Shown: in pieces, positions 7,669-60,430 of the stretch
Numbering within the stretch: the stretch's first letter is position 1
Layout of the letters: the number at the start of each line of letters is the position of its first letter
Assembly (NCBI GenBank): GCA_017461055.1
Contig: JAFTZI010000005.1
Location: 2,557 to 66,556, forward strand
DNA length: 64,000 bases
DNA from: Clostridia bacterium
Lineage (GTDB): Bacteria > Bacillota > Clostridia > Oscillospirales > CAG-272
Direction of reading: 5' to 3'
Program-made: the position numbers and the translations under genes
Notes under the pieces: generated by a model
What the model was told of the DNA's origin: nothing
The model's input: only the letters and a program-made list of their open reading frames with translations
The model's database searches: none

Positions 7669-9891
7669 CTAATCCTTTTCATCAGTAAACAATACCTTAA
7701 TTGTTATAATAGTGCCTTTGTTCAAGCTTGTGCCTTCGGCATAATTCTGCGAGATAACAATTGCACCTTGACCGTACTTAAAATTGCTTGCTCCCTCTAT
7801 TTTTACATTAAATCCCTTTTCTAGTAAAATCTCATTTGCCTCCTCTACGGTTTTACCAATAACATTTGGTACTGTTGAGGTTCGACTTTCATCCTTACCT
7901 GTATATAAAATTATTTTTCCGTTTTGCTTGTAAATTTTACTGCCTGAATGAGGCATTTGTGAGCTTATTACCTCACCGTTACCGATAATCTCATAATCAA
8001 CCTTGTTTTCTTTCAAAATTTTAATCGCTTCATCTATTTTTTTATCAACCATATCTTCAACTGTATATTGCTCATATTCTTCATTTTCACCGTAGTTTGG
8101 CTCAACGCCCATATAAGGTAAAATTGATTCTAACAGTTTAGAAACATAAGGTGCGGCAACTACGCTACCGTATTTACTGCCAACACTTGGCTCATCAACC
8201 AAAATAATAACTGCTACCTGTGCATCCTCAGACGGTGCATATGCAATACATGAAGAAACTCTATAAGATGTATTTCCGTTTTCATCGTATTTATCCTTTT
8301 TTTCCGACGTTCCTGTCTTTGCAGCAACACTGTAGCCTGCTACGTAAGCATTTTTGGCGCCACCTTCACCGTCTACACCCTCTTTTAAAATTTGGGATAT
8401 TGTTTTCGAAACTTCGCTACTGATAATCTGATTGCTTTTTTGAGTGCTTGCCTCATAAACTATATTTCCGTTGTTATCGACTATGTTTTTAATAAAATGC
8501 GGTGTAACTAAGTAACCGCCATTTGCTACTGCACTAATAGCTCTGATTTGTTGTATAGCAGTTGTTTTAAAGGTTTGACCAAATGAATACACTGCAAGAG
8601 AAACGTTTGAAAAATCAGAAAACTGATGATAGTAACCATTAGATTCAGACGGTAGATCTACTCCGGTTTTAGTTGTATATCCAAACCTTTGAAAATAGTT
8701 GTAAAATTTTTCTTTGCCAATATTAAAAGCAAGCTTCATCATTGAAGGGTTGCAGGACTGTTGAAGCGCTTCTGCAAACGTAATAGTTCCATGACCTGTC
8801 CTTTTATGACAGCTTATTGCTCTGTAAAAGCCATCTACCTTTAATGCTCCCGTGCAAGTAAAGCTACTACTCAGTGATGCAGCTTTTTCCTGAAGCGCTA
8901 CTGAGGTGGTAATTAACTTAAATGTAGAGCCCGGCTCATAAAGCTCAGTTACAGCTTTATTATTCCACATTTTAAACAATAGATTTAAGTATTCATTTTT
9001 ATATTCGGCAGTGCCCTTTTCGTATTTATCAAGCTGTTTTTGTGAATCCGGATCCAAGGTATATGGGTCATTTAAATCAAAGCTTGGATATACTGCCATT
9101 GCATATACTTCACCTGTTTGAGGATTCATTACTATTCCTGCCGCTCTGTTTTGAGCCCCTGACTCAATGGCAGCTGTTTTCAGCTGTAGCTCTAACTGAT
9201 ATTGAATGTACAAATCAATCGTTGTTGTAAGATTATAACCATTCTCATCTTCAATATATTCTTCGAATTGAAATGGCATATCCCCACCCTGTGCATTTTG
9301 CGCAGTTATATACTTTCCTGTCGTTCCCTCTAACACATTATTGTATGTCTTTTCCAACCCATAAATCCCCACTCCATCGGCATTAACAAAGCCAAGTGCA
9401 TGTGATGATAAGGTAGAAAAGGGATAATACCTCTCTGTGCTTGCTTTTAATTGGATTTGTTCAGTCAAATTATTATCGTCAATAAAAGCTCGTATTTTCT
9501 TAACAACTTCATCATCCAAATCAGTATCAATAATTTGATATTTATAACCGATTTTTTTAGCTTTATCTAAAATCAAGTCATAATTTATGCCTAATATTTC
9601 AGATAAGCCTTGTGCAATTTTACTTGGCTCTTTTATATTTTGGGGTAAAAGATATAATACCCAAACCGTTTTGTTATTAGCCAAAATCTGTCCGTTTCTA
9701 TCGTAAATGATTCCTCTGTTTGGGTTTACGTTTGTTTCAACCGTTAATTGATCGATCACCTCGTTTTGATACTCATCATAACCCAATATTTGCAACTTAA
9801 AAAGCTCTGCAACAATTAATGAAGCTATCAATGCAAATACAACAAGCATAATTACACTTCTTTTTATCATCTTTGTAGTTAATTTATCCAT
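7669..9891 (-). CDS. Class B penicillin-binding protein (PBP2B/SpoVD type) with two C-terminal PASTA domains
   Basis: N-terminal TM anchor. Motifs STFK, SCN and KTGT. Two PASTA-like segments near the C-terminus. Confidence 0.9.
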   Translation of the reverse strand: MDKLTTKMIKRSVIMLVVFALIASLIVAELFKLQILGYDEYQNEVIDQLTVETNVNPNRGIIYDRNGQILANNKTVWVLYLLPQNIKEPSKIAQGLSEILGINYDLILDKAKKIGYKYQIIDTDLDDEVVKKIRAFIDDNNLTEQIQLKASTERYYPFSTLSSHALGFVNADGVGIYGLEKTYNNVLEGTTGKYITAQNAQGGDMPFQFEEYIEDENGYNLTTTIDLYIQYQLELQLKTAAIESGAQNRAAGIVMNPQTGEVYAMAVYPSFDLNDPYTLDPDSQKQLDKYEKGTAEYKNEYLNLLFKMWNNKAVTELYEPGSTFKLITTSVALQEKAASLSSSFTCTGALKVDGFYRAISCHKRTGHGTITFAEALQQSCNPSMMKLAFNIGKEKFYNYFQRFGYTTKTGVDLPSESNGYYHQFSDFSNVSLAVYSFGQTFKTTAIQQIRAISAVANGGYLVTPHFIKNIVDNNGNIVYEASTQKSNQIISSEVSKTISQILKEGVDGEGGAKNAYVAGYSVAAKTGTSEKKDKYDENGNTSYRVSSCIAYAPSEDAQVAVIILVDEPSVGSKYGSVVAAPYVSKLLESILPYMGVEPNYGENEEYEQYTVEDMVDKKIDEAIKILKENKVDYEIIGNGEVISSQMPHSGSKIYKQNGKIILYTGKDESRTSTVPNVIGKTVEEANEILLEKGFNVKIEGASNFKYGQGAIVISQNYAEGTSLNKGTIITIKVLFTDEKD

Positions 9892-45697: not shown

Positions 45698-47293
45698 TTA
45701 TTTTTTTCTAATTTTTTTCATTATATGCTCATAAGATATACCGTATTTGTCGGCAATATCCTTAGCATAGCTCTTACCATCGGGTTTTTGACGAATAATT
45801 TTAAAGCTTCTCTGCCCTTCCTCAATACCGGCAACAAGAGTGTCGATTTTTGCACCGCCGTTTTTTTGGCATCTTTCGTTAATATCATCTATCATAGCGG
45901 AAAGCTCATGTAAGTGAGTGGAAAAAATGCCTCTGCATCCTACCATAGATATACCGCTTAGAATTTCTGATGCTATGTAAGAAGCCTCGTATGAGCCGGT
46001 AGAGGACAAGGACTCATCAAGTAAGACTAAGCTATGTTCGGTTACATAGTCAAATATCTCGTCAAGTCTTGCACACTCTTCTCCTAAACGACCTTTATCA
46101 ATTGTGTCGTCTGCGCCGGATGGGAAATGTGTGTAAATACCGTCAACAGGGCTGATAATTGCGCTTTCACAGGGCACGCACAAGCCAAGCTGACAAAGCG
46201 CAAAGGTCAAACCAACAGCACAGGTAATTACCGATTTTCCTCCACGGTTTGGACCTGATAAAACATAAAAGACGCCATCATCATCAAAAGCAAAGTCATT
46301 TTGTATCATTTGCTCCTCGACTCTTGTTGCAACTGCCGGATTATAAATACCCTTAACATCAAAGACCTTATTTTCCATAGGCATAATTACAGGATAGCAC
46401 ATTGGATTAGCTTCGGTAAGCAATTTAATTAACTCAACACCCTTAACTAAAAATTCAATTTCCGGCATAAGCTTAATAAGAAAATCCGCATTTTCAAGAA
46501 TATAGGTATGCACAACACTTTTCCAAGAGCGCATTGATGATTTAAATACAGTATTCAGAGCATTATTAAACGCGTTAGATAATGCGCTTTGCTGATTATC
46601 AGATTGTCCTTTTTTAAATGGGACAAGTGATGCTATACAAGTATATTCATTGCTTTTAAAATCAAGCCTTAAGATCTTTTGTAACAGTTCACCCGACTTA
46701 AAATACTCGTTATTTACGCTCAACACACCTGCTGACTCAGGGTGCAGCCTACCGTCAAGGTTTACGCCGATAGTGACGCTTTTAACCTCTCTTACTCTTG
46801 ATGTCAGCTCTTTTAAGCGTTGATTTAGCTCATTATAGTAGTCACTTTCTGTTAGTTCAATTACCAAATTGGCAAGCTCATTAAATGCCTTGCTCTTAAG
46901 GGTTGACATTAGCGGCTTCAAGCCATCATACAAAAGCTCCAAGCAAGATACATAAAGCTCTATTTCAGTTATGCTATATAGGTATGTATCAGAGGTTTCA
47001 TTATCAATAGTCAGACGACGGAGCTCGGAAATGTCGCTTAAAATGGGATTTACCTTAATCAGAAGCTTACATAGCTCATCATTTTCAAGCAAGTCCTTGA
47101 AAACCTCTTGTCTATATTCAATAACAGCCTTATCTGTTGTAAAAAAATCGCAAAGACGGCTGTTTTTCAAATTCAAAATTGAATTCAGACCTAATTCTTC
47201 CAAGACCTCGTCAGATATATTAGGGTTACCCTGACAATTATTCTCTTGCATTTGCGGATCAGGGTAAATTAAGCTAATTTCTCTTTTTTGCAT
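45698..47293 (-). CDS. MutS-related ABC-type ATPase lacking mismatch-binding and Smr domains
   Basis: Walker A GPNRGGKS, LLDESLSSTG, STHLHEL. 531 aa. Confidence 0.8.
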   Translation of the reverse strand: MQKREISLIYPDPQMQENNCQGNPNISDEVLEELGLNSILNLKNSRLCDFFTTDKAVIEYRQEVFKDLLENDELCKLLIKVNPILSDISELRRLTIDNETSDTYLYSITEIELYVSCLELLYDGLKPLMSTLKSKAFNELANLVIELTESDYYNELNQRLKELTSRVREVKSVTIGVNLDGRLHPESAGVLSVNNEYFKSGELLQKILRLDFKSNEYTCIASLVPFKKGQSDNQQSALSNAFNNALNTVFKSSMRSWKSVVHTYILENADFLIKLMPEIEFLVKGVELIKLLTEANPMCYPVIMPMENKVFDVKGIYNPAVATRVEEQMIQNDFAFDDDGVFYVLSGPNRGGKSVITCAVGLTFALCQLGLCVPCESAIISPVDGIYTHFPSGADDTIDKGRLGEECARLDEIFDYVTEHSLVLLDESLSSTGSYEASYIASEILSGISMVGCRGIFSTHLHELSAMIDDINERCQKNGGAKIDTLVAGIEEGQRSFKIIRQKPDGKSYAKDIADKYGISYEHIMKKIRKK

Positions 47294-47398
47294 TTTTCCT
47301 CCTAATATGAATGAATACGTTATTATAATAACATAAAATTGTTGATTTGAAAAGTAGAATTTGTTAAATAAATTAAAAAGCCGTTAAAAAACGACTTT

Positions 47399-48508
47399 TT
47401 AATCATTGTTCGTATTTTTTTTGCTTGAATCCTTTTTAAAATATTTTTCTTTAATCAATTTATTAAGAATATTAAAAAAGGTTTTCTTGGTCTTATCATC
47501 AGTTTTTAAAACGCCCTTTAAAAAGCTCTTTTTATCAGATGCGATATCAGTTAAGGTAGCAGTATCATTTGCAGTCAATATTTTATATAATGCCTCCACA
47601 AACTCTACTCTTTCTTTGTCTGTAAGCGTTCCAACCCAGCTATTTAATGTGTCATGAAAATCAACTGATGCTTTAGACGGATTTAATGCGTCGACGAATT
47701 TCTTGCCTAAAACCTCCCACGTAAAAGCATCATGCTGATATAAGCCTTTTGCATTGCTTTTAACGTACATCATATTTTCCATTGAATCAAATATAGCACC
47801 TATAATTGCGCCTTGCGGGCAAATTTTATAGAGCTTGGGAGCTATCGGATTGCTTTTTTCTGCCTCCAAAAAGCTTTGTCTAAAGCCCGGGCCGTCAAAA
47901 TTGTAAACTGCTTCAATTTTATTTTGTTGCTTTTTGTCTACCTTTAATGATGAATATGCTGCAAGATTACCGCCTTTAGAGTGTCCGCAAACATAATAAT
48001 GCTCTTTGTTACCTCTCGAAATTACCGAGGAAAGATAATCTACTGCTTGCTTTTGCGCAGGAATTGGAGTAAAGAAAGCCATATTAAAGTCTTCCTTCCA
48101 TCCTATAATTGTATCATCAGTGCCTCTGAACGTTATTACAGTTGTACTTTTACCTATATCAAAGCACATTGCCGAAAACTGTTTTTCGGCTTTTATGTCA
48201 ATTTCGTTAACAAAGCCCCTTGCTAACACTTCAGCAAATCTATTTGATGATGCAGATAATCTGAACAATTCTAAAATTGATTCGGTAGGTATGATTGCGC
48301 CTAATTTATTACTATCATAATGTAATGAAAAATATTTTTCTGCAAGTACAGACAGAGGAATTCCCTTAGAGGCAATGGATGCAGGAACTAAATCCTCAAA
48401 CGGAACATATGAAAGCTCTGCAAAAATCAGTGCATCTATTTCATTAAATGAGCAATCACTAAAGGAAATATCTCCTCTCCATTTTACATAATCAATTATA
48501 TTAGCCAT
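47399..48508 (-). CDS. DUF2974 (Mbeg1-like) alpha/beta-hydrolase-fold protein
   Basis: GHSKGG nucleophile elbow. 369 aa. Confidence 0.7.
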   Translation of the reverse strand: MANIIDYVKWRGDISFSDCSFNEIDALIFAELSYVPFEDLVPASIASKGIPLSVLAEKYFSLHYDSNKLGAIIPTESILELFRLSASSNRFAEVLARGFVNEIDIKAEKQFSAMCFDIGKSTTVITFRGTDDTIIGWKEDFNMAFFTPIPAQKQAVDYLSSVISRGNKEHYYVCGHSKGGNLAAYSSLKVDKKQQNKIEAVYNFDGPGFRQSFLEAEKSNPIAPKLYKICPQGAIIGAIFDSMENMMYVKSNAKGLYQHDAFTWEVLGKKFVDALNPSKASVDFHDTLNSWVGTLTDKERVEFVEALYKILTANDTATLTDIASDKKSFLKGVLKTDDKTKKTFFNILNKLIKEKYFKKDSSKKNTNND

Positions 48509-48656
48509 TTTATCACCTCTTCAACTATATTATACTAACTCGAATTTTCAAAGTCAACATTTTTAAGTATTTTTTAAGTTTTGTTAATATAATTGACTTA
48601 TATGCACAAATAAACATAAAAAATCATTGTAAATAAGTATAAATTGCCCAAATCAG

Positions 48657-48685
48657 TTGACAAAAATGCTGAATTGTGTTAATAT
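48657..48685 (+). promoter_or_regulatory. Sigma-A-type promoter of the VTC/DUF4956 operon
   Basis: TTGACA (48657-48662), 17-nt spacer, TGtTAATAT (hexamer 48680-48685). The track ORF start at 48657 is this -35 box. Confidence 0.5.
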
Positions 48686-48713
48686 TATAAAAGAAATAAG
48701 AAGGGGGGATTTT

Positions 48714-49505
48714 ATGGCTTTCGGTGTTACGTTTAAACGATATGAGAAAAAGTATCTTATAAACAGTGAGCAATATGAAGCTTTAAAAATCGAAATAGAT
48801 AAGCATTTCGTCCCCGATGAATATGGTGAAACTAAAATTTGCAATCTTTATTATGATACACCAAATTATCTGACTATCAGAAGGTCGATTGAAAAGCCTG
48901 TCTTTAAGGAAAAGCTTCGCTTAAGAACCTACGGTGTTCCGAATGATACAACCACCGCTTTTTGTGAAGTAAAGCGAAAATTTAAGTCAGTTGTCTATAA
49001 AAGACGCATACATTTGCCATATGTTGATGCTTTAAAGTATTTAAATAAAAATTATGATAAATTTGATGACACTCAAATTTCAAGAGAAATTAAATATTTG
49101 CTTGATTTTTACGGTACTTTAGAGCCAAAATTTTACATTTCTTATGATAGGTGTGCTTACTTTTACAAGGAGACGAGCGACATTAGAATTACATTTGACA
49201 GAAATATCACTTGGCGTTCAAACGATTTAGATTTAAGGCTTGGCTCATACGGTGATCAGCTTTTACCGCAGAACTACACTCTTATGGAAATTAAAGTACC
49301 GAATACGGTTCCTCTGTGGCTATCACAGTTAATGTCACAGTTGGGTATTAGGGCTTCGTCCTTTTCTAAGGTTGGAAATGCTTATAAAAAAATGCTCCGT
49401 TCTGACTATGATATAAGGTTAGGACATACAGTTGTTTTGGATGAACAGCTGTTCGAGGATGCATTTGATGAAAACGAATATATTGCGCAAGGAGTAGATG
49501 AATAA
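48714..49505 (+). CDS. VTC-domain (CYTH-like, polyphosphate-polymerase-like) protein
   Basis: FKRYEKKYLI, RLRTY and MEIKV pattern. ATG 48714 follows AAGGGGGG. Confidence 0.8.
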   Translation: MAFGVTFKRYEKKYLINSEQYEALKIEIDKHFVPDEYGETKICNLYYDTPNYLTIRRSIEKPVFKEKLRLRTYGVPNDTTTAFCEVKRKFKSVVYKRRIHLPYVDALKYLNKNYDKFDDTQISREIKYLLDFYGTLEPKFYISYDRCAYFYKETSDIRITFDRNITWRSNDLDLRLGSYGDQLLPQNYTLMEIKVPNTVPLWLSQLMSQLGIRASSFSKVGNAYKKMLRSDYDIRLGHTVVLDEQLFEDAFDENEYIAQGVDE

Positions 49506-50206
49506 TGGATTTTATAATTAAAACGATTTTTGACCAAGAATACGTTAACGGTGAGTTAACAACTAAGCTAAAGCCATCTGATGTATTTATTTGTGTCGGT
49601 ATTGCAATTGTACTTGGTTTAATAATTGCAGGCTGCTATATGTTCAGGAATGAATATTCAAGAAACTTGATTATTTCAGTATCAATTATGCCTGTTATCG
49701 TGACAGTTTTAATTATGCTTGTTAGTGGCAGTATCGGCGCTGCAATTGCTGTTGGCGGTGTATTTGCACTTACAAGATTCCGTTCTGCACAGGGTACATC
49801 AAGAGAAATCACGCAAATTCTCTTGGCAATGGCTACCGGTTTAACTCTTGGATTAGGTTATGTGTATATTGCAATTATTCTTGTTGTAGTAGTTGAAGTT
49901 ATGTGCATTATATTCAACCTAACTAAATTTGGAGAAGCAAGCTCCAAAAGAAGAACCTTGAAGATTACTATTCCTGAGGAGCTCGACTATAACGAATTGT
50001 TTGACGATTTGTTTGAAAAATATACAAACAGAGCTACATTAATTAAGGTAAAGCTTAAAAATCTTGGTACACTCTTCCAGCTTACATATGATATTATGTT
50101 AAAGGACGTAAAAACTGAAAAGCAATTCATCGATGAATTAAGAGTGAGAAATGCTAACCTTGACATTCTCTGCTCAAGAGTAATTACAGGCTCTGATGAG
50201 CTTTAA
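49505..50206 (+). CDS. DUF4956 membrane protein
   Basis: Three or four TM segments plus a soluble C-terminal domain. Start overlaps the VTC gene stop. Confidence 0.7.
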   Translation: MDFIIKTIFDQEYVNGELTTKLKPSDVFICVGIAIVLGLIIAGCYMFRNEYSRNLIISVSIMPVIVTVLIMLVSGSIGAAIAVGGVFALTRFRSAQGTSREITQILLAMATGLTLGLGYVYIAIILVVVVEVMCIIFNLTKFGEASSKRRTLKITIPEELDYNELFDDLFEKYTNRATLIKVKLKNLGTLFQLTYDIMLKDVKTEKQFIDELRVRNANLDILCSRVITGSDEL

Positions 50207-50248: not shown

Positions 50249-50265
50249 TTACTTCACTATATAAT

Positions 50266-50295
50266 AGCAAAAGCCCACCAAAGTGGGCTTTTGCT
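50266..50295 (-). terminator. Terminator downstream of the 45-aa sORF
   Basis: 13-bp stem AGCAAAAGCCCAC (50266-50278) and GTGGGCTTTTGCT (50283-50295). Confidence 0.6.
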
Positions 50296-50314
50296 ATTGG
50301 TTAAAATAGAAAAC

Positions 50315-50452
50315 TTATGCTTCTTCTTCGGGCAAACCACCGATAGTACCGTCATCGTATACGTTTCCACCAGTGTTTCCACCAGTAGAAGCGAGGATTA
50401 CATCATTTGTCTCTATCTCTACTGTATTGAATTCAGGTGCAAAATACTTCAT
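50315..50452 (-). CDS. Untracked 45-aa sORF: MKYFAPEFNTVEIETNDVILASTGGNTGGNVYDDGTIGGLPEEEA
   Basis: ATG at 50452-50450 lies 8 nt after GGAGG. TAA at 50317-50315. Terminator 20 nt downstream. Sits 45 nt after the stop of the 1698-aa gene. Below the length cut-off of the ORF track. Confidence 0.45.
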   Translation of the reverse strand: MKYFAPEFNTVEIETNDVILASTGGNTGGNVYDDGTIGGLPEEEA

Positions 50453-50497: not shown

Positions 50498-53400
50498 TCA
50501 GTTATTAACGTATGCAAGAGCAGATTCACCGTACTGATACATAGCTCTTAAGAAATCCTTTGTAACAGCATCGCTAACATCTTGATTTGAATATAGATAT
50601 GAGTTTACAGAATAGTAGTACTCTCTACCTATCTGCTCGCCATTGTGTAAAATCACACCGGTAACTGTCTTGCCATAAGCAGAAACGTTCATATTTGTAA
50701 ATTCAATCACGTATCTGTCTGTATAGCCAGCCGCTAATTTCAATTCGCTCGCCTTGAACTCTTCACGTCTATAGCCTGCTTCGCCCTCTGTTCCTAGGGA
50801 CAATACGATTACAACGTTATCAAGTTCAGACTCTGCTACCTGTACTGTATACCTAATAGTTGTTGCGTTACCAACCAACAATGTCATTGTCTTCCAGTCT
50901 GCAACTGTGCTCTTTTCGCCAATATAGCCCTTTACATTCTCTGATGCATCAACACCGTCAAATGTAGAAGCTGTAAGGTTTGTTACATCAGCTGTCATTA
51001 AGCTGTCTGTCTTATAGTTTGCATAAACCTGAGCCTTATCGCCTAATACGAGAAGGTCTGAAATCATTGTCTTGAACTCAGCATCAGTAGACTTACCGAG
51101 CTGGTTAACTATGTATTGCTTAACACTATATGTTGGATATGAAGACACTGCTTCTAAGCCACTTGCTGTCTTTGCATAGATCGTTGCTTCAATATTATCA
51201 GCCATAAACTGCAATCTTACACCTTCAAATGTGAAGCAATATCTACCTTTTTCGTCTGTTTCATAATCAGTTACAGTATACTCAAGATCTCCATCTGCTG
51301 TATTAAGCTTAAATACAACATATACATCTGTATAGTCACTTCCAATAACATTCTTGTACACTACGTTAATATTTTCACCAAGTGTCAATGTAAGTGCGCC
51401 TACCTTTAATGTATCATATACAACTTCTTCTGGAGCAACTATCACTTCGCCACATTCTGAGCATTCAACTCCTGAGGTCCAACCCGAGTTCGCCTTTGTT
51501 GCAGGTACTGCTGGGATTTCTACTTCGGTGTGAACATGTGGATTAGCATCTTCAAGAGTAAGAACTACCACTTCATAATCTACAGAGAAGCTGCTTGTGC
51601 CAACAACAAATGTTACTGTTTCGCCTTCAGCTACTGTGAAGCTGTATGGAAGTTCGATCATTTCTGATGAATACTCATCAAGAAGAATTGATACATTTGC
51701 ACCGTTTGGAGCAGAAAGAATATAATCACCAGGTGTAGAGATTGTTACCTTTGTGCCCTGTGATGTAGCATCAATATTGTTATCGCCAAGAGAAAGAACC
51801 GGTCTTTCTGTTGCTACAAATGATACATTGAAGGACTCTACGCCCGCTGATACTGCAAAGTAGCAAACATTATTAACGAGATTGTCAGGTTCTACAATAA
51901 ATGTATACTCTGTTGCGCTTGTTTGGAACATCATTCCACGCATAAATACCATTAAGCTTTCTGAGTAAATTACTGAACCATTGGTTTCAAATGTAATTAC
52001 AAGCTTACCGTAGCCGGAAGCTGTGTACTGGTAAATAACACCGCTTGCATTTGAATCATAAAGCACATATGTATTTGCACCATCTACTGCAGTAACAGGT
52101 TCGTTTACTGTTCCCTTTGTGATTGTTTCTTGTGTAGCTCCACAAAGTTCACATGTCTGTACATAACCTGTGTCAGCTTCATTTCTTACACTTTCATCGC
52201 CCCATGCGTGTCCGTACTCTGTGTCAATCTCATAGTTAACTGTGAAGCTTTCTCCGCATACTGAGCATTTGTCAGACGCATAGCCTGCTTCTTTACATGT
52301 TGATGATACGTATACATAATCATCGCCATATGTGAATGAGTGAGCGCCGGCTGCATCAACTTCATCAGTTGTGTAGCTGTCGCCACATGAGCATTCATGT
52401 AATGTATAACCGTTTGTTGTACAAGTAACATCTACAACTGTATCAACATAGCTATGTTCATGCTTTGTAATAGTAAGAGTTACTGTTTCAGCATATGGAT
52501 AAATAAGGATGTAAACTACCTGGTCCTCTGCAAATGTGAACAATGTGTCAGCATAAGCAGTTGTTGAACCATATGCATCTAATACGTATACATCTGCTGC
52601 GTCTGCTGTGAAGTAGTACATGCCCGCAGTAGCATTAAACTGTACCTTTGTCTGAGCAGCACCGGTCTCAACTGTATTTGCACCAACAACTACTGTTGCA
52701 GGTGTGATTGTTTCGTATGTAATTGTAATAGATGGAGCCTCTGTTGCTGTTGCATCAAATGATGGAATCAAAATATATGATGTGTTGAATCCATCAGCAT
52801 TTACAATTATAGGATCGGAAACGAGCTGAGCAGGCATACGTGGATTTGTCATCATATAGCATGCTGAGCCCTCGCTTGATGTTAATGTGAGCTTACCATA
52901 TTCAGGTGTATCAACAGTTATAACATTCTGGTATGCCATGGAATTGAAGCCTGCTGTTGCTGTTGTTCCATCTACTGTTACAGTTGCAACCAAGCCACAA
53001 TCGTATGAACAAGCAATGGAAATTACATTGTTCTCTGTTGTTGCATTTGCTAAATCATAGATATGCTCGCCAAGTGCTTCGCCTTCTGTTGCTGAGCATA
53101 CGGAGCATGTCTTAGCAGTTGTACATGTTGCATCTACCCATGTATGTCCAAGCGCTTCGCCTTCTGTTTCTGAGCATACAGAGCATGTCTTAGCAGTTGT
53201 ACATGTTGCGTCAGTCCATGTATGACCAAGTGCTTCGCCCTCTGTGTAGTCGCATCTTGAGCAGCTCAAAGGAGTTGTACAAGTTGCTGCAACGGACATA
53301 TCGTGACCGAGAGGATCACCTGAGGTAGCAGAGCATGTAGAGCAAGTCTTTGCTACTGTACATGTAGCATTTACCCAAGAGTGACCTGTTTCTCTTACGA

Positions 53401-55594
53401 TATCGCCTTTTTTAGTTGCACCACAATCACTACATGTGTAGATTGTATAACCAAAGTCATCACAAGTAGGAGCTACTACTTCGCCCGCAACCCATGTGTG
53501 ACCGTCAGCAACCTCTTGCATAGTGGAACCAGTAACCTTTGCCTCATAAACAACACCGTTATATGAACAAAGACCAGGACCTCCACCATTAGAGCCACCA
53601 TTTGAACCACCAACATAAATCATAATTTCAGATGTATATACGGGTTCGCTAAGCTCTAATGTATATTCATACTTAGTTCCCTTGTAAGTAGCAGGTGTTG
53701 GTGTCTTTCCTCCCACTTTCCACTCATCACTACCAGGGTCCTTATAGTAGAATATCAACCAAGCAGAGTTACTACGAGAATCGCTGTATTCTTCAAGACC
53801 AACCCATACAGTTACACTAGAAATGTAGTAATTCATATCAAGCTTTGTGGCAGATTGAGCAAACCAGCCACCGCCAACCATTAAACGCGTATTTAGGTCA
53901 TTATCAAATAATGCATGTGCTATAGGATTCCAACCACCTATACCATCATTAGCAACGTCAGCAATGTTAATATACTCTGTAACATCATCAACGTTTACAT
54001 TTCTTTCGACAGTTTGACCACATCTTATACACTCAAACTCTATTACTGGGGCAGTAATGCAAGTAGCAGGAGTTTTAATTCTGTACTCAGAGAAATCGTG
54101 GTCAAGCGCAGGAATAGACACAGCACCTTCAGGAACACCACATACTGTACAAACATTCTGCTTTGAACCATCTGTTGTACATGTAGGTTCAACTAATACT
54201 TTTTCTTCGAAAACATGATTTTCACATGCAGTTGGTATTCTTTCACGACCAGTGAAGTACACCTCAAGAACAGCAGGTGTCCAGCTCCAGCTTCCACCTG
54301 CATCAGTTATGATAATGTACTTTACAGCCTTATCATCGTCACCATAAGCAAGTCCACTTACGGCTGAACTAAAATCGGTATAAGTAAGTGTTTCAGGCTT
54401 AGAATAGTTAGCTTGGTCTAAGAAATAAATATTGTCACCTGAAAGCCATCCAGAATTTTTCTCACCAAGTAGTGTACCATCAGCGGCATAGAATGAAAAC
54501 TTAATTGCACACCAGTTGGTTGCTAATATTGCTTTAGCTTCTGTAATTTCCCATTCATTCTTAAGAGTAATTTTAATAGCACTGTCTGTAGGACCACCCC
54601 ACAAGTTGCCAACTACTCCGGCAATGCCATCCAAAACATATTCAGGAGCACCGTTGCCAGTAGAACCAGCTATGAGCTCAACTTCACCTATGATGTCATC
54701 ATATGTGATTGTATCGCCTTCATCGCCTCTTACGAAGCTTGTTAATGCGCTATCAACCCATACGTCACCCTCGGTAGCTCCACAGGTCTTACATGTCTTT
54801 GGAGCTGTGTAGGAAGCGTTCTTCCAAATATGTTTGCTTTCATCAACTTCGCCTTCTGTTGTACCACATACTGTGCAGGTCTTTGGAGCTGCGCAGGTTG
54901 CCTCAACCCATGTATGTTCTGTAGAAACTTCGCCCGTTGTTTCGCCACAGTATGCGCATGTAGCTTTTGTTGTACATGTAGCAGCTGAATAGTTATGGTC
55001 AGCTTCATTTACACAATTGTAGTCGTAGATTTCTACTTCCCAAACACCCATTTCATTGGAGCCACCGTGAACAGTAGCAATCTCTACCTTTGTGATATCG
55101 GAATAAATTACACCACCAAGGTCAAATGTGTAAGTTGTGTAAAGTGTATTGCCTTCATCATCAGTTGCAGCAGCAAATTTGCTTGCAGCAACATTTTCAA
55201 GTGCGTAAATTGCAGTTGATGATGCTGAATTGTAAAGTCTAAGATAAATGTTTGGAAGTGCAGACAATTCAGTATATTCCTTAATAGATTTTGCAACGCC
55301 TTCGCTATCGTAATAAACATTACCTGTACTGTTTACTACAACAACTACCTTAGAAACATTAATGCCATCTGCATAAAGAAAATGGAAGTTAACCCAGCTT
55401 GCAGCAGAGCCACAAGAAGCGGCTGTATTGACATCACCGTCTCTTATCATTTCAAGAGAGGCATCACCGCATCCACCATCTTCAGCAAGAGTAGCATCCT
55501 TTACTACGTTTTCGCTTGTTGCCGCAAAGGCGCTGATTGCGAACATTGCCATTACGAGAAGCACAAAGCATAGCAATAAAGAAATTCTCTTCAT
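50498..55594 (-). CDS. Giant secreted modular protein: discoidin/F5-8-type-C-like modules alternating with Cys-rich H-Xn-C-Xn-C-X2-C repeats
   Basis: 1698 aa. Signal peptide MKRISLLLCFVLLVMAMFAISAFA. Three modules ending in EVEIY, LEVYF or YEAKV-like strands. At least 14 H/C repeat units. I see no LPXTG, SLH or C-terminal TM anchor. Confidence 0.85.
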   Translation of the reverse strand: MKRISLLLCFVLLVMAMFAISAFAATSENVVKDATLAEDGGCGDASLEMIRDGDVNTAASCGSAASWVNFHFLYADGINVSKVVVVVNSTGNVYYDSEGVAKSIKEYTELSALPNIYLRLYNSASSTAIYALENVAASKFAAATDDEGNTLYTTYTFDLGGVIYSDITKVEIATVHGGSNEMGVWEVEIYDYNCVNEADHNYSAATCTTKATCAYCGETTGEVSTEHTWVEATCAAPKTCTVCGTTEGEVDESKHIWKNASYTAPKTCKTCGATEGDVWVDSALTSFVRGDEGDTITYDDIIGEVELIAGSTGNGAPEYVLDGIAGVVGNLWGGPTDSAIKITLKNEWEITEAKAILATNWCAIKFSFYAADGTLLGEKNSGWLSGDNIYFLDQANYSKPETLTYTDFSSAVSGLAYGDDDKAVKYIIITDAGGSWSWTPAVLEVYFTGRERIPTACENHVFEEKVLVEPTCTTDGSKQNVCTVCGVPEGAVSIPALDHDFSEYRIKTPATCITAPVIEFECIRCGQTVERNVNVDDVTEYINIADVANDGIGGWNPIAHALFDNDLNTRLMVGGGWFAQSATKLDMNYYISSVTVWVGLEEYSDSRSNSAWLIFYYKDPGSDEWKVGGKTPTPATYKGTKYEYTLELSEPVYTSEIMIYVGGSNGGSNGGGPGLCSYNGVVYEAKVTGSTMQEVADGHTWVAGEVVAPTCDDFGYTIYTCSDCGATKKGDIVRETGHSWVNATCTVAKTCSTCSATSGDPLGHDMSVAATCTTPLSCSRCDYTEGEALGHTWTDATCTTAKTCSVCSETEGEALGHTWVDATCTTAKTCSVCSATEGEALGEHIYDLANATTENNVISIACSYDCGLVATVTVDGTTATAGFNSMAYQNVITVDTPEYGKLTLTSSEGSACYMMTNPRMPAQLVSDPIIVNADGFNTSYILIPSFDATATEAPSITITYETITPATVVVGANTVETGAAQTKVQFNATAGMYYFTADAADVYVLDAYGSTTAYADTLFTFAEDQVVYILIYPYAETVTLTITKHEHSYVDTVVDVTCTTNGYTLHECSCGDSYTTDEVDAAGAHSFTYGDDYVYVSSTCKEAGYASDKCSVCGESFTVNYEIDTEYGHAWGDESVRNEADTGYVQTCELCGATQETITKGTVNEPVTAVDGANTYVLYDSNASGVIYQYTASGYGKLVITFETNGSVIYSESLMVFMRGMMFQTSATEYTFIVEPDNLVNNVCYFAVSAGVESFNVSFVATERPVLSLGDNNIDATSQGTKVTISTPGDYILSAPNGANVSILLDEYSSEMIELPYSFTVAEGETVTFVVGTSSFSVDYEVVVLTLEDANPHVHTEVEIPAVPATKANSGWTSGVECSECGEVIVAPEEVVYDTLKVGALTLTLGENINVVYKNVIGSDYTDVYVVFKLNTADGDLEYTVTDYETDEKGRYCFTFEGVRLQFMADNIEATIYAKTASGLEAVSSYPTYSVKQYIVNQLGKSTDAEFKTMISDLLVLGDKAQVYANYKTDSLMTADVTNLTASTFDGVDASENVKGYIGEKSTVADWKTMTLLVGNATTIRYTVQVAESELDNVVIVLSLGTEGEAGYRREEFKASELKLAAGYTDRYVIEFTNMNVSAYGKTVTGVILHNGEQIGREYYYSVNSYLYSNQDVSDAVTKDFLRAMYQYGESALAYVNN
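53070..53385. repeat. In-frame 78-bp (26-aa) tandem repeat inside the giant gene
   Basis: The CCAAG anchor recurs at 53070, 53148 and 53226, with CCGAG at 53307. Units 1 and 2 differ at about 8 of 78 nt. They encode GHTW(T/V)DATCTTAKTCSVCS(E/A)TEGEAL. Confidence 0.85.
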
Positions 55595-55699: not shown

Positions 55700-55728
55700 A
55701 GTTTATCACAAGGTTTAAATTTTGTCAA
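55700..55728 (-). promoter_or_regulatory. Sigma-A-type promoter of the giant gene
   Basis: Minus strand: TTGACA (55728-55723), 17-nt spacer, TGaTAAACT (hexamer 55705-55700). Leaves a 5' UTR of about 100 nt. Confidence 0.5.
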
Positions 55729-55743
55729 CTTGAACAAAAATCG

Positions 55744-55757
55744 TTTTTTTTTTTTTT
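55744..55757. repeat. T14 homopolymer (A14 on the coding strand) 15 nt upstream of the -35 box
   Basis: Counted directly: T at every position 55744-55757. Confidence 0.9.
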
Positions 55758-55800: not shown

Positions 55801-55834
55801 AAAAACGCTCTGTAAACCGAGAGTTTACAGAGCG
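55801..55834 (-). terminator. Terminator of the glycoside-hydrolase-like gene
   Basis: CGCTCTGTAAAC (55806-55817) and GTTTACAGAGCG (55823-55834). A5 at 55801-55805 gives a U-tail on the minus strand. Confidence 0.65.
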
Positions 55835-55926
55835 TTAACGATTATTTTTTTGGTAAAAATGTCAAATAGCACCAAATATGAACAATTTGTAAATTTTGAA
55901 GTTATGATGATTATTTTGTGAAAATT

Positions 55927-59175: not shown

Positions 59176-59221
59176 CAAAAAAGGCTTTTCCAATTCGATT
59201 AATTGGAAAAGCCTTTTTTTA
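59176..59221. terminator. Bidirectional terminator between convergent genes
   Basis: 15-bp arms AAGGCTTTTCCAATT (59181-59195) and AATTGGAAAAGCCTT (59201-59215), flanked by A and T runs. Confidence 0.7.
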
Positions 59222-60430
59222 ATTTTCAGTCCATTTTGCTGTAAGCTTAACATGCTTATAGATGCTCCATGTTTCACCTGTTAGCGGTACTGACTGTTCG
59301 CCATAATACCAGCCATCAAAGGTATAGCCCTCACGTGTCGGTGTAGGTAAGCTATACGCTTTTCTAATTGTTACTATTATTCCATCAGAATCATCGGGAA
59401 TTGATCCGCCATTTGCGTCCAGCTTTATATACATCTTTGCCATAGTATATATGGTGTAGCCAAAGGCGGCTCTAATCTGTGTAATGACGTCTATTAGCTC
59501 CCCATTGCCTTCTTCAAGTACAAGATTTTCGCTCCACTCAAAAAGTGTAGCCAAATCTATAATTTCCCTCATTTTTCCCTCATCATTATAGTAGTACAGG
59601 GAAACCTTGATTCCATTGCAATCAGCAAATGCGTTTTTACCGATTTTGTTAACGGTATTGGGCAATAATATTCTTGGGAAGGTAAAGCTGTCCTGGGATA
59701 TTTTAGCGCCTGCGCCTGCAAACAAGTCTTGACCTATTTCCTTTACAGGCTTGCCATTATACTCGGTAGGAACAAATATATCCTTATCAAATGAGCCGGC
59801 ATAGTAAACGACAGCTAAATAATCTCCCTTATCAGAATAATAATAGTTATCTTCTCCAATATAAGAATACTCAATTATATCAATAGCTTCGTCAGAAGCT
59901 CCAAGATTTTGGGTATTATAAGAGATATCATCATTAATAAATAGCTTTACTTGCTGACCGTTTGTGCTTGATATTGCTTCAGATAATTTTGAAAATGCTC
60001 CATCCTTAATGCTCACAACCTTGATAGAATTAAATTCGGTTGGAACAAAAATATTTTCTGTTGCAATGCCTCGATAATCTATAATTGTGTATCCATTTTC
60101 GCCTTGCTCATAAACGAAAGAGTTTTCATCCCTTATTATCCACTCAGCGACAAGAGTCAAATCAATATCGTACTTCCAGCTATCACCAATTGTCTCAACA
60201 TATTCACCGTTATAATACCAACCGCTAAACACAAAGCCCTGCTTGGTGGGAGATGGAAGCTCGTAGCTTGAACCGCATTTTATTCTCACCTGTGATTTTT
60301 CCATTGTTCCGCCATTTAAGTCAAAGGTAACTGTATTCTTTTGCATTTCTAAAATGCCGAAAATTCCGCCTATTATTATACCAAGCAACAATATGGCAGA
60401 AATCAAAATTATTATATTTTTCTTTTGCAC
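59219..60430 (-). CDS. Membrane-anchored surface protein: two Flg_new (InlB B) repeats flanking BspA-type leucine-rich repeats
   Basis: N-terminal TM anchor. VTFDLNGGT...GFVFSGWYYNG and KLDANGGS...GYTFDGWYYG. IFVPTE(F/Y)N...(V/I)K.I LRR_5-like units. Confidence 0.7.
   Translation of the reverse strand: MQKKNIIILISAILLLGIIIGGIFGILEMQKNTVTFDLNGGTMEKSQVRIKCGSSYELPSPTKQGFVFSGWYYNGEYVETIGDSWKYDIDLTLVAEWIIRDENSFVYEQGENGYTIIDYRGIATENIFVPTEFNSIKVVSIKDGAFSKLSEAISSTNGQQVKLFINDDISYNTQNLGASDEAIDIIEYSYIGEDNYYYSDKGDYLAVVYYAGSFDKDIFVPTEYNGKPVKEIGQDLFAGAGAKISQDSFTFPRILLPNTVNKIGKNAFADCNGIKVSLYYYNDEGKMREIIDLATLFEWSENLVLEEGNGELIDVITQIRAAFGYTIYTMAKMYIKLDANGGSIPDDSDGIIVTIRKAYSLPTPTREGYTFDGWYYGEQSVPLTGETWSIYKHVKLTAKWTEN

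Follow-up and report, generated by a model that had tools for sequence, protein, structure and literature searches.

What does a secreted bacterial protein of 1,698 residues do with five clusters of a short repeat, each unit carrying one histidine and three cysteines (His/Cys3), interleaved with globular modules? The question is raised by a giant gene in a 64,000-nucleotide stretch of DNA from a Clostridia bacterium of the order Oscillospirales (GenBank assembly GCA_017461055.1, contig JAFTZI010000005.1, positions 2,557 to 66,556), which was analyzed as a whole and is called the window here. Its product, P0001, is best explained as a non-enzymatic surface or extracellular binding protein of an uncultured gut or rumen-type member of the Clostridia that is carried on metal-stapled stalks, a reading given a probability of roughly 0.6. 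The repeat belongs to the same sequence family as two domains, ZBD1 and ZBD2, of the immunoglobulin A (IgA) protease of Thomasclavelia ramosa. Its units are very probably metal knuckles and constitute a common, lineage-specific stalk module that has been in the literature since 2025, and no oddity of P0001. An initial annotation, made from the sequence alone, had described P0001 as secreted, modular, and non-catalytic, and its sequence features support that description.

The family membership of the repeat was established by profile comparison. Searches of Pfam and NCBIfam with the whole of P0001 or with ten pieces of it gave no match and merely zinc-finger-like noise below threshold, the best being C1_1 with 25.6 bits against a cut-off of 26.5, covering only the His...CxxC start of that domain; a phmmer search of the PDB with the whole protein found nothing. 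A profile of 28 double long units (A5, with P0001 residues 458–537 in cluster R2 as its first row) matched PDB chain 9qa6_A, ‘IgA protease’ of T. ramosa, with E = 1.4e-6 over chain stretches 845–882, 922–975, and 1098–1133. The 9qa6 chain is an A31–I1166 construct, and its offset places these stretches at approximately 874–911, 951–1004, and 1127–1162 in UniProt numbering, the second and third lying inside ZBD1 (residues 879–1008) and ZBD2 (1101–1171) and the first beginning about five residues before ZBD1 (PMC12237041). The two domains, named ZBD1 and ZBD2 in one study (PLoS Pathog 2025, PMC12237041) and CTD2 and CTD4 in another (PNAS 2025, PMC12415215), are part of an M64 IgA protease and were described in 2025 as putative zinc-binding rods or ‘metal-associated periscope domains’, with predicted tetrahedral His/Cys zinc sites at the interfaces of successive three-stranded sheets (PMC12237041, PMC12415215). 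The small-angle scattering of X-rays (SAXS) from isolated CTD2 was fitted only by a fully extended rod (PMC12415215). Literature searching with generic terms yielded nothing on the subject.

P0001 and the ZBDs share predicted tandem small beta-sheets with a His/Cys ligand set in an extracellular, non-catalytic setting in a Gram-positive gut anaerobe, and a rod or ‘periscope’ with metal sites between the sheets is proposed for both. The IgA protease has five units only, all of them long and mostly with two His and two Cys, placed between the protease head and an LPXTG-type anchor, whereas P0001 has about 15, mostly of the His-Cys3 kind and many in a 26-residue short form undescribed in both 2025 papers, distributed over five clusters between lectin-like modules in a protein with neither a catalytic domain nor a sortase signal. 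The repeat, first taken to be of unknown function, does match a described family, though one that is only half well characterized, the ZBDs being known from predictions and SAXS only.

A second kinship, to classical zinc fingers, was considered and set aside. The profile of short units (A4) retrieved solely C2H2 arrays such as CTCF from the PDB (E = 4.5e-4), which was judged a convergent similarity of knuckle and linker. The repeat has in common with zinc ribbons, C1 domains, and C2H2 arrays a CxxCG knuckle on a beta-hairpin and a period of 26–28 residues, whereas its ligand order and spacing (H-x6-C-x5-C-x2-C) differ, it is extracellular and without a helix, and each match either falls short of its family threshold or covers no more than the knuckle and linker; convergence is the most likely source of the resemblance. 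The motif T-x-P-K-T-C-x-x-C, together with the 26–28-residue period, mimics the TGEKP-linker/CxxC pattern, and false annotation is possible.

In P0001 itself, a relaxed pattern, H-x(3-16)-C-x(4-12)-C-x2-C, has 10 matches, compared with a mean of 0.07 and a maximum of 2 in 2000 shuffled versions of the protein. Another five units are degenerate, most of them without the first cysteine (residues 255–271, 844–866, ~1044–1070, 1130–1151, and 1350–1381), which brings the total to about 15 in the five clusters R1–R5 (Table 1) and agrees with an earlier count of at least 14. The short unit is 26 residues long, with the consensus GHxWxDATCTxPKTCxxCGxTEGEAL, and the long unit follows H-x10-12-C-x9-10-C-x2-C; the two classes are homologous (hhalign 97.5%, E = 8e-12), the extra residues of the long form lying in the His–Cys1 and Cys1–Cys2 intervals. 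The histidine and all three cysteines are invariant or at least 90% conserved in all unit alignments (A3, A4, and A5; 845 short and 286 long units), giving one conserved four-ligand set per repeat period, and in short units the GH-x-W and TEGEAL positions are also conserved. The R5-type HxH...CxxC unit stands directly N-terminal of the C-terminal module in every close family member. Inside R3, a 78-bp tandem DNA repeat (53070–53287; 2.3–2.8 copies, 82–89% matches) encodes two near-identical units, GHTW(T/V)DATCTTAKTCSVCS(E/A)TEGEAL; it reflects recent unit duplication and marks a likely site of copy-number change.

Table 1. Coordinates of the giant gene, the parts of its product P0001, and the flanking elements; positions are those of the window.
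Feature	Position	Strand	Description
Coding sequence of P0001 (1698 aa)	50498..55594	minus	Intact open reading frame; GGAG 9 nt 5' of ATG
Signal peptide, residues 1-24 (...SAFA/AT)	55523..55594	minus	Predicted Sec type; sole hydrophobic segment; cleavage site read by eye
Module A1, residues 25-193	55016..55522	minus	Galactose-binding-domain-like (CBM32/discoidin-type) beta-sandwich by AlphaFold2 and Foldseek
Cluster R1, residues 194-275	54770..55015	minus	Two short H-x6-C-x5-C-x2-C units and a terminal unit with first Cys replaced by Tyr262
Module A2, residues 276-456	54227..54769	minus	Beta-rich; common to only 5 close homologues
Cluster R2, residues 457-530	54005..54226	minus	Two long units (H-x11/12-C-x9-C-x2-C) after conserved Cys457
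Module A3, residues 531-696	53507..54004	minus	Beta-rich, possibly discoidin-like
Cluster R3, residues 697-866	52997..53506	minus	One long and four short units and a terminal unit without first Cys
Module B1, residues 867-1042	52469..52996	minus	Beta-rich; related to P0003 only, distantly to B2
Cluster R4, residues 1043-1155	52130..52468	minus	Three long or degenerate units, the final one without first Cys
Module B2, residues 1156-1348	51551..52129	minus	Beta-rich; common to P0014, P0039, P0007, and P0016
Unit R5, residues 1349-1390	51425..51550	minus	Lone HxH...CxxC unit carrying two His and two Cys
C-terminal twin module, residues 1391-1698	50501..51424	minus	Halves 50990-51424 and 50501-50989
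Small open reading frame (45 aa)	50315..50452	minus	MKYFAPEFNTVEIETNDVILAS... and acidic Gly-rich tail; co-oriented, 45 nt after the stop, GGAGG upstream
16-bp hairpin after the small frame	50263..50298	minus	Minimum free energy -27.6 kcal/mol, z = -6.7 against shuffles; probable terminator
Promoter-like site	55700..55728	minus	TTGACA-17-TG-n-TAAACT (extended -10); consensus scan and sequence read
Terminator hairpin of the upstream GHL6-type hydrolase gene	55804..55836	minus	15-bp stem then T run

The structure of the units was predicted with AlphaFold2 for residues 25–290, using an alignment of 10 homologues and 40 three-unit arrays. The R1 units are modeled as short beta-hairpins with a predicted local distance difference test score (pLDDT) of 90–97, and short strands lie directly before Cys2 and directly after Cys3, which makes the CxxCG motif a hairpin knuckle. 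The invariant His and three Cys, combined with these confidently predicted mini-hairpins, render the metal-binding knuckles first proposed for the units the most likely interpretation. The strand topology suggests that the histidine and its own CxxC knuckle sit at one end of the hairpin and Cys1 at the other, beside the histidine of the next unit. Each unit would then be a small hairpin of beta-strands, or a sheet of three strands, with a CxxCG knuckle at its end, and one tetrahedral metal, most likely Zn2+, would be held by Cys1 of unit n and by His, Cys2, and Cys3 of unit n+1. With every joint stapled in this manner, an array would be a stiff rod, the same module as ZBD1 and ZBD2, and the five clusters of a protein exported via Sec would serve as stalk segments.

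Extracellular Cys-rich repeats of other organisms are usually disulfide-bonded, no member of this family has a measured metal, and the metal-free AlphaFold models still exceed a pLDDT of 90. These observations favor a different account, in which the units are not metal sites but disulfide-stapled or hydrogen-bonded mini-domains whose histidine has a structural or ligand-contacting role. Such an account is considered rather improbable. The histidine is as conserved as the cysteines (95% in internal units), and with three cysteines to a unit, an odd count, full pairing inside one unit is impossible. Zinc ribbons and rubredoxin have the CxxCG motif as a classic element, and the profiles weakly pick up zinc fingers only, both in the PDB and in Pfam. 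The hosts are gut anaerobes, for which extracellular thiols would stay reduced. No disulfides were seen in the IgA protease despite its 24 cysteines (PMC12237041). Zinc stapling, if true, would explain long rigid stalks without disulfides in strict anaerobes and would tie the surface architecture of gut commensals to metal availability.

Under the metal-joint model, a site spans units n and n+1, and the last unit of an array therefore needs no Cys1. The array ends display such a regularity: in the 120 best-scoring proteins, 306 of 513 ends carry a final H...CxxC unit without the intervening Cys, a histidine stands at the canonical distance after 96% of last short units, and the typical cap is GH-x6-C-x2-CG. 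Four of the five clusters of P0001 (R1, R3, R4, and R5) end in a unit without Cys1. Because arrays usually end without the first cysteine, each metal site would join one unit to the next, and literature models together with the array-end regularity suggest that the units pack end to end. P0001 presents the repeat in its typical setting and yields a testable rule, in which Cys1 is dispensable in the last unit and the site bridges two units; the rule is our inference from sequence and not a result. At the other end of the arrays, C-x-H starts are 3.5-fold enriched (64 of 390 observed, about 18 expected), and some arrays have a Cys one or two positions ahead of their first His, as in C457-x2-H460 at R2 of P0001. 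The idea that the first site is generally completed by a Cys shortly upstream of the first His was dropped as a rule, since such a Cys occurs in 32% of cases against 31% expected and solely the C-x-H subset is enriched. At the junction of A1 and R1 (window 55016–55045, residues 185–200), a histidine (ATVH185GG) and Cys194, which stands five residues before the first repeat histidine (C194-x5-H200), are kept in all homologues, and this conserved pair might form a metal site locking the sandwich onto the stalk.

The distribution of the repeat bears on whether the arrays are stalks or the functional part of the protein. In a search of 5.8 billion proteins, 579 relatives were found among 8000 candidates scored, most of them sharing the repeat alone and hundreds of them large proteins of Clostridia; in the best 120 proteins 1928 units were counted, the number per protein having a median of 15.5 and reaching 39 at most. 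Elsewhere the repeat is combined with LRR (PF13306), Flg_new, SLH, dockerin, CBM26, glycosidase, and transglutaminase-like domains. Arrays of short units were found in 36 of 201 genomes of the order and 28 of 121 genera, whereas an even sample of the phylum has the repeat in 1 of 301 genomes, its own genome only, which indicates that it is lineage-restricted. About 15 open reading frames (ORFs) of the genome carry it, nearly all with a signal peptide or lipobox and some with a C-terminal transmembrane helix. The His/Cys3 repeat is consequently not unusual for an extracellular protein of this lineage, contrary to what was initially supposed; it ranks with the most frequent building blocks from which large surface proteins are made in an order of uncultured Clostridia of gut and rumen, is nevertheless absent from Pfam and NCBIfam, and is known from publications solely as a domain predicted in one IgA protease. 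Same-genome proteins with 3–11 His/Cys3 units include C50:3373 (1596 aa), C164 (737 aa), C94 (810 aa), and C138 (637 aa), and others were found in C114 (434 aa), C2 (599 aa), C136 (966 aa), and C182 (1095 aa). Several of the same-genome arrays begin right after the lipobox Cys (…LASCGHEH…), so that the first repeat histidine adjoins the lipid-modified cysteine.

The number of sites, about 15 putative ones in P0001 and up to 39 units in relatives, could also mean that the arrays themselves are functional, as a zinc-dependent surface for adhesion or self-association or as a cell-surface metal buffer, with the sandwich modules as mere spacers. The conserved GH-x-W and TEGEAL positions could represent a face for binding, changes in copy number are suggested by the near-identical 78-bp units, and a possible role like that of SasG and Aap has been raised (PMC12415215). 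This possibility is regarded as unlikely: the arrays stand beside varied passengers (proteases, LRR, CBM26, and glycosidases), which is the signature of a generic spacer, and the ZBDs of the IgA protease are dispensable for catalysis and extended in shape (PMC12237041, PMC12415215). The zinc of SasG and Aap lies between molecules, whereas a full four-ligand set is present here within one chain. The G5-E periscope or stalk proteins SasG and Aap nevertheless resemble P0001 in having long arrays in which small beta-sheet repeats without a core keep functional domains at a distance from the cell, with repeat number varying through near-identical DNA units; fold and sequence are unrelated, and the zinc that joins molecules there is proposed here to staple repeats in-chain.

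If the arrays are stalks, the rods would space and project the beta-sandwich modules A1, A2, A3, B1, and B2, which presumably bind glycans or other surface ligands. A1 has the best-defined fold. All of its Foldseek matches have a probability of 1.0 and a TM-score to the target of 0.45–0.62, and they comprise APC10/Doc1, CBM32 (4uap and 4a42), IFT25, the lectinolysin lectin domain, and DDR1. At the sequence level, an A1-type profile has CBM32 4a42 as its top PDB match with only E = 0.07, the Pfam gathering score for F5/8 type C (PF00754, PF22633) is not reached by the whole protein or any module, and the best single-member match to an F5/8 type C family among 16 modules related to A1 is E = 6e-4. 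A1 is, by its predicted structure, a discoidin/CBM32 fold, yet not a Pfam-level member. It resembles the CBM32 modules of Clostridium perfringens (GH89 CBM32-6, 4a42; GH31 CBM32, 4uap) in its predicted beta-sandwich and N-terminal ‘DG-x-x-x-T’ motif region and differs from them in a sequence identity of 9–14%, in the lack of a Pfam F5_F8_type_C match at a useful threshold, and in having no attached enzyme.

The initial annotation had proposed three discoidin-like modules, which is supported for A1 at the level of fold and is only tentative for A2 and A3. Comparison with the A1 family by hhalign gives 11% for A2, which has no PDB or Pfam match, and 25% for A3, in the register expected for the fold, with no PDB match by profile search. 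B1 has no match in Pfam or the PDB, and no family was found for the B modules in Pfam and PDB profile searches; a PPC domain (PF04151) was rejected for B1 and B2, the weak match of B2 scoring 12.6 bits (E = 0.27) where 25.9 bits are required, with no member of the B alignment matching. The globular modules have no paralogues in their own genome.

The C-terminal module was modeled by AlphaFold2 with a pLDDT of 92.5 and a predicted TM-score (pTM) of 0.87 as a beta-sandwich with a helical hairpin after it, present twice. Homology between its halves is seen by BLASTP (E = 0.001) and by hhalign (98%, E = 2e-13), and the duplication first noticed in the sequence is borne out by all three methods. 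Pfam, PDB profiles, Foldseek PDB, and Foldseek BFVD contain no specific relative, Foldseek giving generic FnIII/Ig sandwiches alone (TM-score ~0.2); with such generic matches only, an origin from a phage tail or receptor-binding protein is unsupported. A profile search of 1.84 billion cluster representatives (50% identity) found 9,889 proteins at E ≤ 1e-3, of which 1,709 reach E ≤ 1e-30, and among the best 150 relatives nearly all have the module running to the final residues of the chain. Some small members consist of a signal peptide or lipobox and the module only (P0153, P0185). In the order of the window, 16 of 201 genomes have it, with up to seven copies per genome.

P0001 is followed by a small ORF (sORF), as had been noted at the outset, and this sORF proved to be conserved at related loci; genes for the twin module often have such a conserved sORF behind them. 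Homologous sORFs lie directly behind related genes in four other loci, those of P0002 (MKYTTPEIQLIAVETEDVILAS...) and P0014 (MKYVAPEFATIVVETEDIILAS...) and L059 and L063, which lie in two genomes belonging to different families of the order. Eight such sORFs were counted in the own genome, three of them directly behind large secreted proteins, and Pfam and NCBIfam contain no match. The family comprises peptides of 33–60 residues with a conserved head, MK(Y)..P......(I/V)E..D(V/I)I..S, and a variable acidic tail, without a signal peptide and without Cys. Further copies were located at C21:5045, C51:54, C75:2840, C78:7745, C138:6535, C153:1462, and C154:69467 of the genome (G000) and, at related loci, at L054:4366, L056:9462, L059:2429, and L063:2429.

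A sequence scan of P0001 found no LPXTG-like motif and no second or C-terminal hydrophobic segment, and a Pfam search of the whole protein gave no anchor domain and no SLH match. The protein had been called anchorless on these grounds, and so far as LPXTG, SLH, and transmembrane segments are concerned the statement stands; their absence means little, since sortase (PF04203) and the SLH domain (PF00395) have no match anywhere in the 90%-complete genome. The repeat-bearing surface proteins of this genome have lipoboxes, C-terminal transmembrane helices, or no recognizable anchor. The twin module, probably together with the presumably co-transcribed peptide, would form a constant ‘base’ beneath freely swapped N-terminal cassettes, and a partner or the cell envelope may be what it fastens the protein to. 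A bolder proposal, to be treated as a long shot, is that the twin module and the peptide make up an unrecognized surface-attachment or assembly device of gut Clostridia free of sortase and SLH, the strand-like head of the peptide (MKY..PE....IE..DVI.AS) docking onto the module, and that the reach of the stalk depends on how much zinc is available in the gut, through the metal shared between units.

The same absence of a transmembrane segment, lipobox, LPXTG, and SLH in P0001 fits a released protein that acts off the cell as a matrix or biofilm scaffold or as a soluble lectin cross-linking glycans, its twin module binding a partner or itself instead of serving as an anchor. Other repeat proteins of the genome do have lipoboxes or C-terminal transmembrane helices, in lipoproteins made of the module only (P0153) the module needs a separate anchor, and RbmA and TasA, which are biofilm proteins, are weakly echoed in structural and profile comparisons. 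This alternative is a serious one, if on balance doubtful. The RbmA and TasA matches are of the generic beta-sandwich kind (TM-score ~0.2; E = 0.057), the module is fixed at the extreme C-terminus of thousands of otherwise unrelated secreted proteins, which is more typical of an attachment or sorting element, and stalk repeats make most sense on a cell-bound protein. The twin module and its partner sORF constitute a second large unannotated family beside the repeat, and curating both would improve the annotation of thousands of ‘hypothetical’ giant proteins from gut metagenomes.

Several points weigh against a binding protein on metal-stapled stalks. The ZBDs are known as AlphaFold models and by SAXS, with metal analysis unreported (PMC12237041, PMC12415215), and there is no solved structure or metal analysis of this repeat in any protein. 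Ligand geometry and the assignment of ligands across units are deduced from the logic of the sequence and the topology of the strands. R2 ends in a unit that retains its first cysteine (C512) with no unit after it, and a Cys within eight residues before the first His occurs no more often than by chance (32% vs. 31%). Among the modules, A1 misses the Pfam F5/8-type-C threshold and its model has an overall pLDDT of 79.5 with parts below 50; A2, A3, B1, and B2 match no family; and glycan binding is a guess from the fold. The C-terminal module need not be an anchor because it makes up small lipoproteins by itself (P0153).

Comparison with relatives reveals a mosaic family. P0002 matches P0001 over residues 1–846 at 76% identity and in the C-terminal module at just 41%, with a different middle, while P0014, the positional orthologue, shares residues 1055–1695 only. 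P0014 occupies the same genomic position in a related metagenome-assembled genome (MAG), beside genes for DUF4956, VTC, Mbeg1-like, and MutS_V proteins. As P0014 is syntenic yet shares only the C-terminal part, N-terminal cassettes appear to be exchanged on a constant base, with the arrays at the junctions. The block of MutS_V-like, Mbeg1-like, VTC, and DUF4956 genes is syntenic between window positions 45698–50206 and positions 9808–14315 of L056, and the giant gene at the L056 block has a wholly different N-terminal half, which points to replacement of the N-terminal cassette at a fixed site. No relatives of P0001 were found among the species-representative genomes searched.

The neighboring genes in the window encode a GHL6/fucosidase-like hydrolase, an SDR, a Flg_new protein, and FucI, and those at the P0014 locus a GH2, rhaM, a polysaccharide deacetylase, and a GDSL lipase. 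GHL6 and FucI in the window and GH2, rhaM, and the deacetylase at the other locus act on fucose and glycans, and the neighborhood amounts to a loose glycan context. A prophage or mobile-element context was rejected: the surrounding genes are for housekeeping and glycans, and the locus shares synteny with that of P0014. The Flg_new protein (59219–60430, minus strand) is a surface-type protein of 403 residues, whose Listeria-Bacteroides repeats match Flg_new with E = 3.7e-21. The window comes from a MAG of 2.31 Mb in 195 contigs that is 90% complete; by MurE, its nearest named genomes, at ~50% identity, are MAGs from animal guts labeled Oscillospiraceae and Clostridia.

The ORF of 1,698 residues was intact, as initially annotated, and so was the signal peptide on which the prediction of secretion was founded: the N-terminus, MKRISLLLCFVLLVMAMFAISAFA/ATS, is the only hydrophobic stretch of the protein, a 19-residue Kyte-Doolittle window exceeding 1.6 solely at residues 1–10. 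Mature P0001 is strongly acidic (228 Asp and Glu vs. 85 Lys and Arg). The giant gene and the sORF are probably one transcription unit, as the sORF begins 45 nt after the stop and a hairpin follows it; the T run of this hairpin is weak, and hence it is unlisted by the consensus scan. The 5' limit of the unit is set by the terminator of the upstream hydrolase gene, and the promoter-like site past this strong terminator agrees with the separate promoter that had been assigned to the gene. The G+C content of the whole gene is 40.9%, compared with 35.9% for the window and 39.7% for the genome; a value of about 50%, noted before for one 60-nt line, pertains to that line alone, and the composition of the gene is unremarkable. 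A run of 14 A on the coding strand (55744–55757) lies 15 nt upstream of the -35 box.

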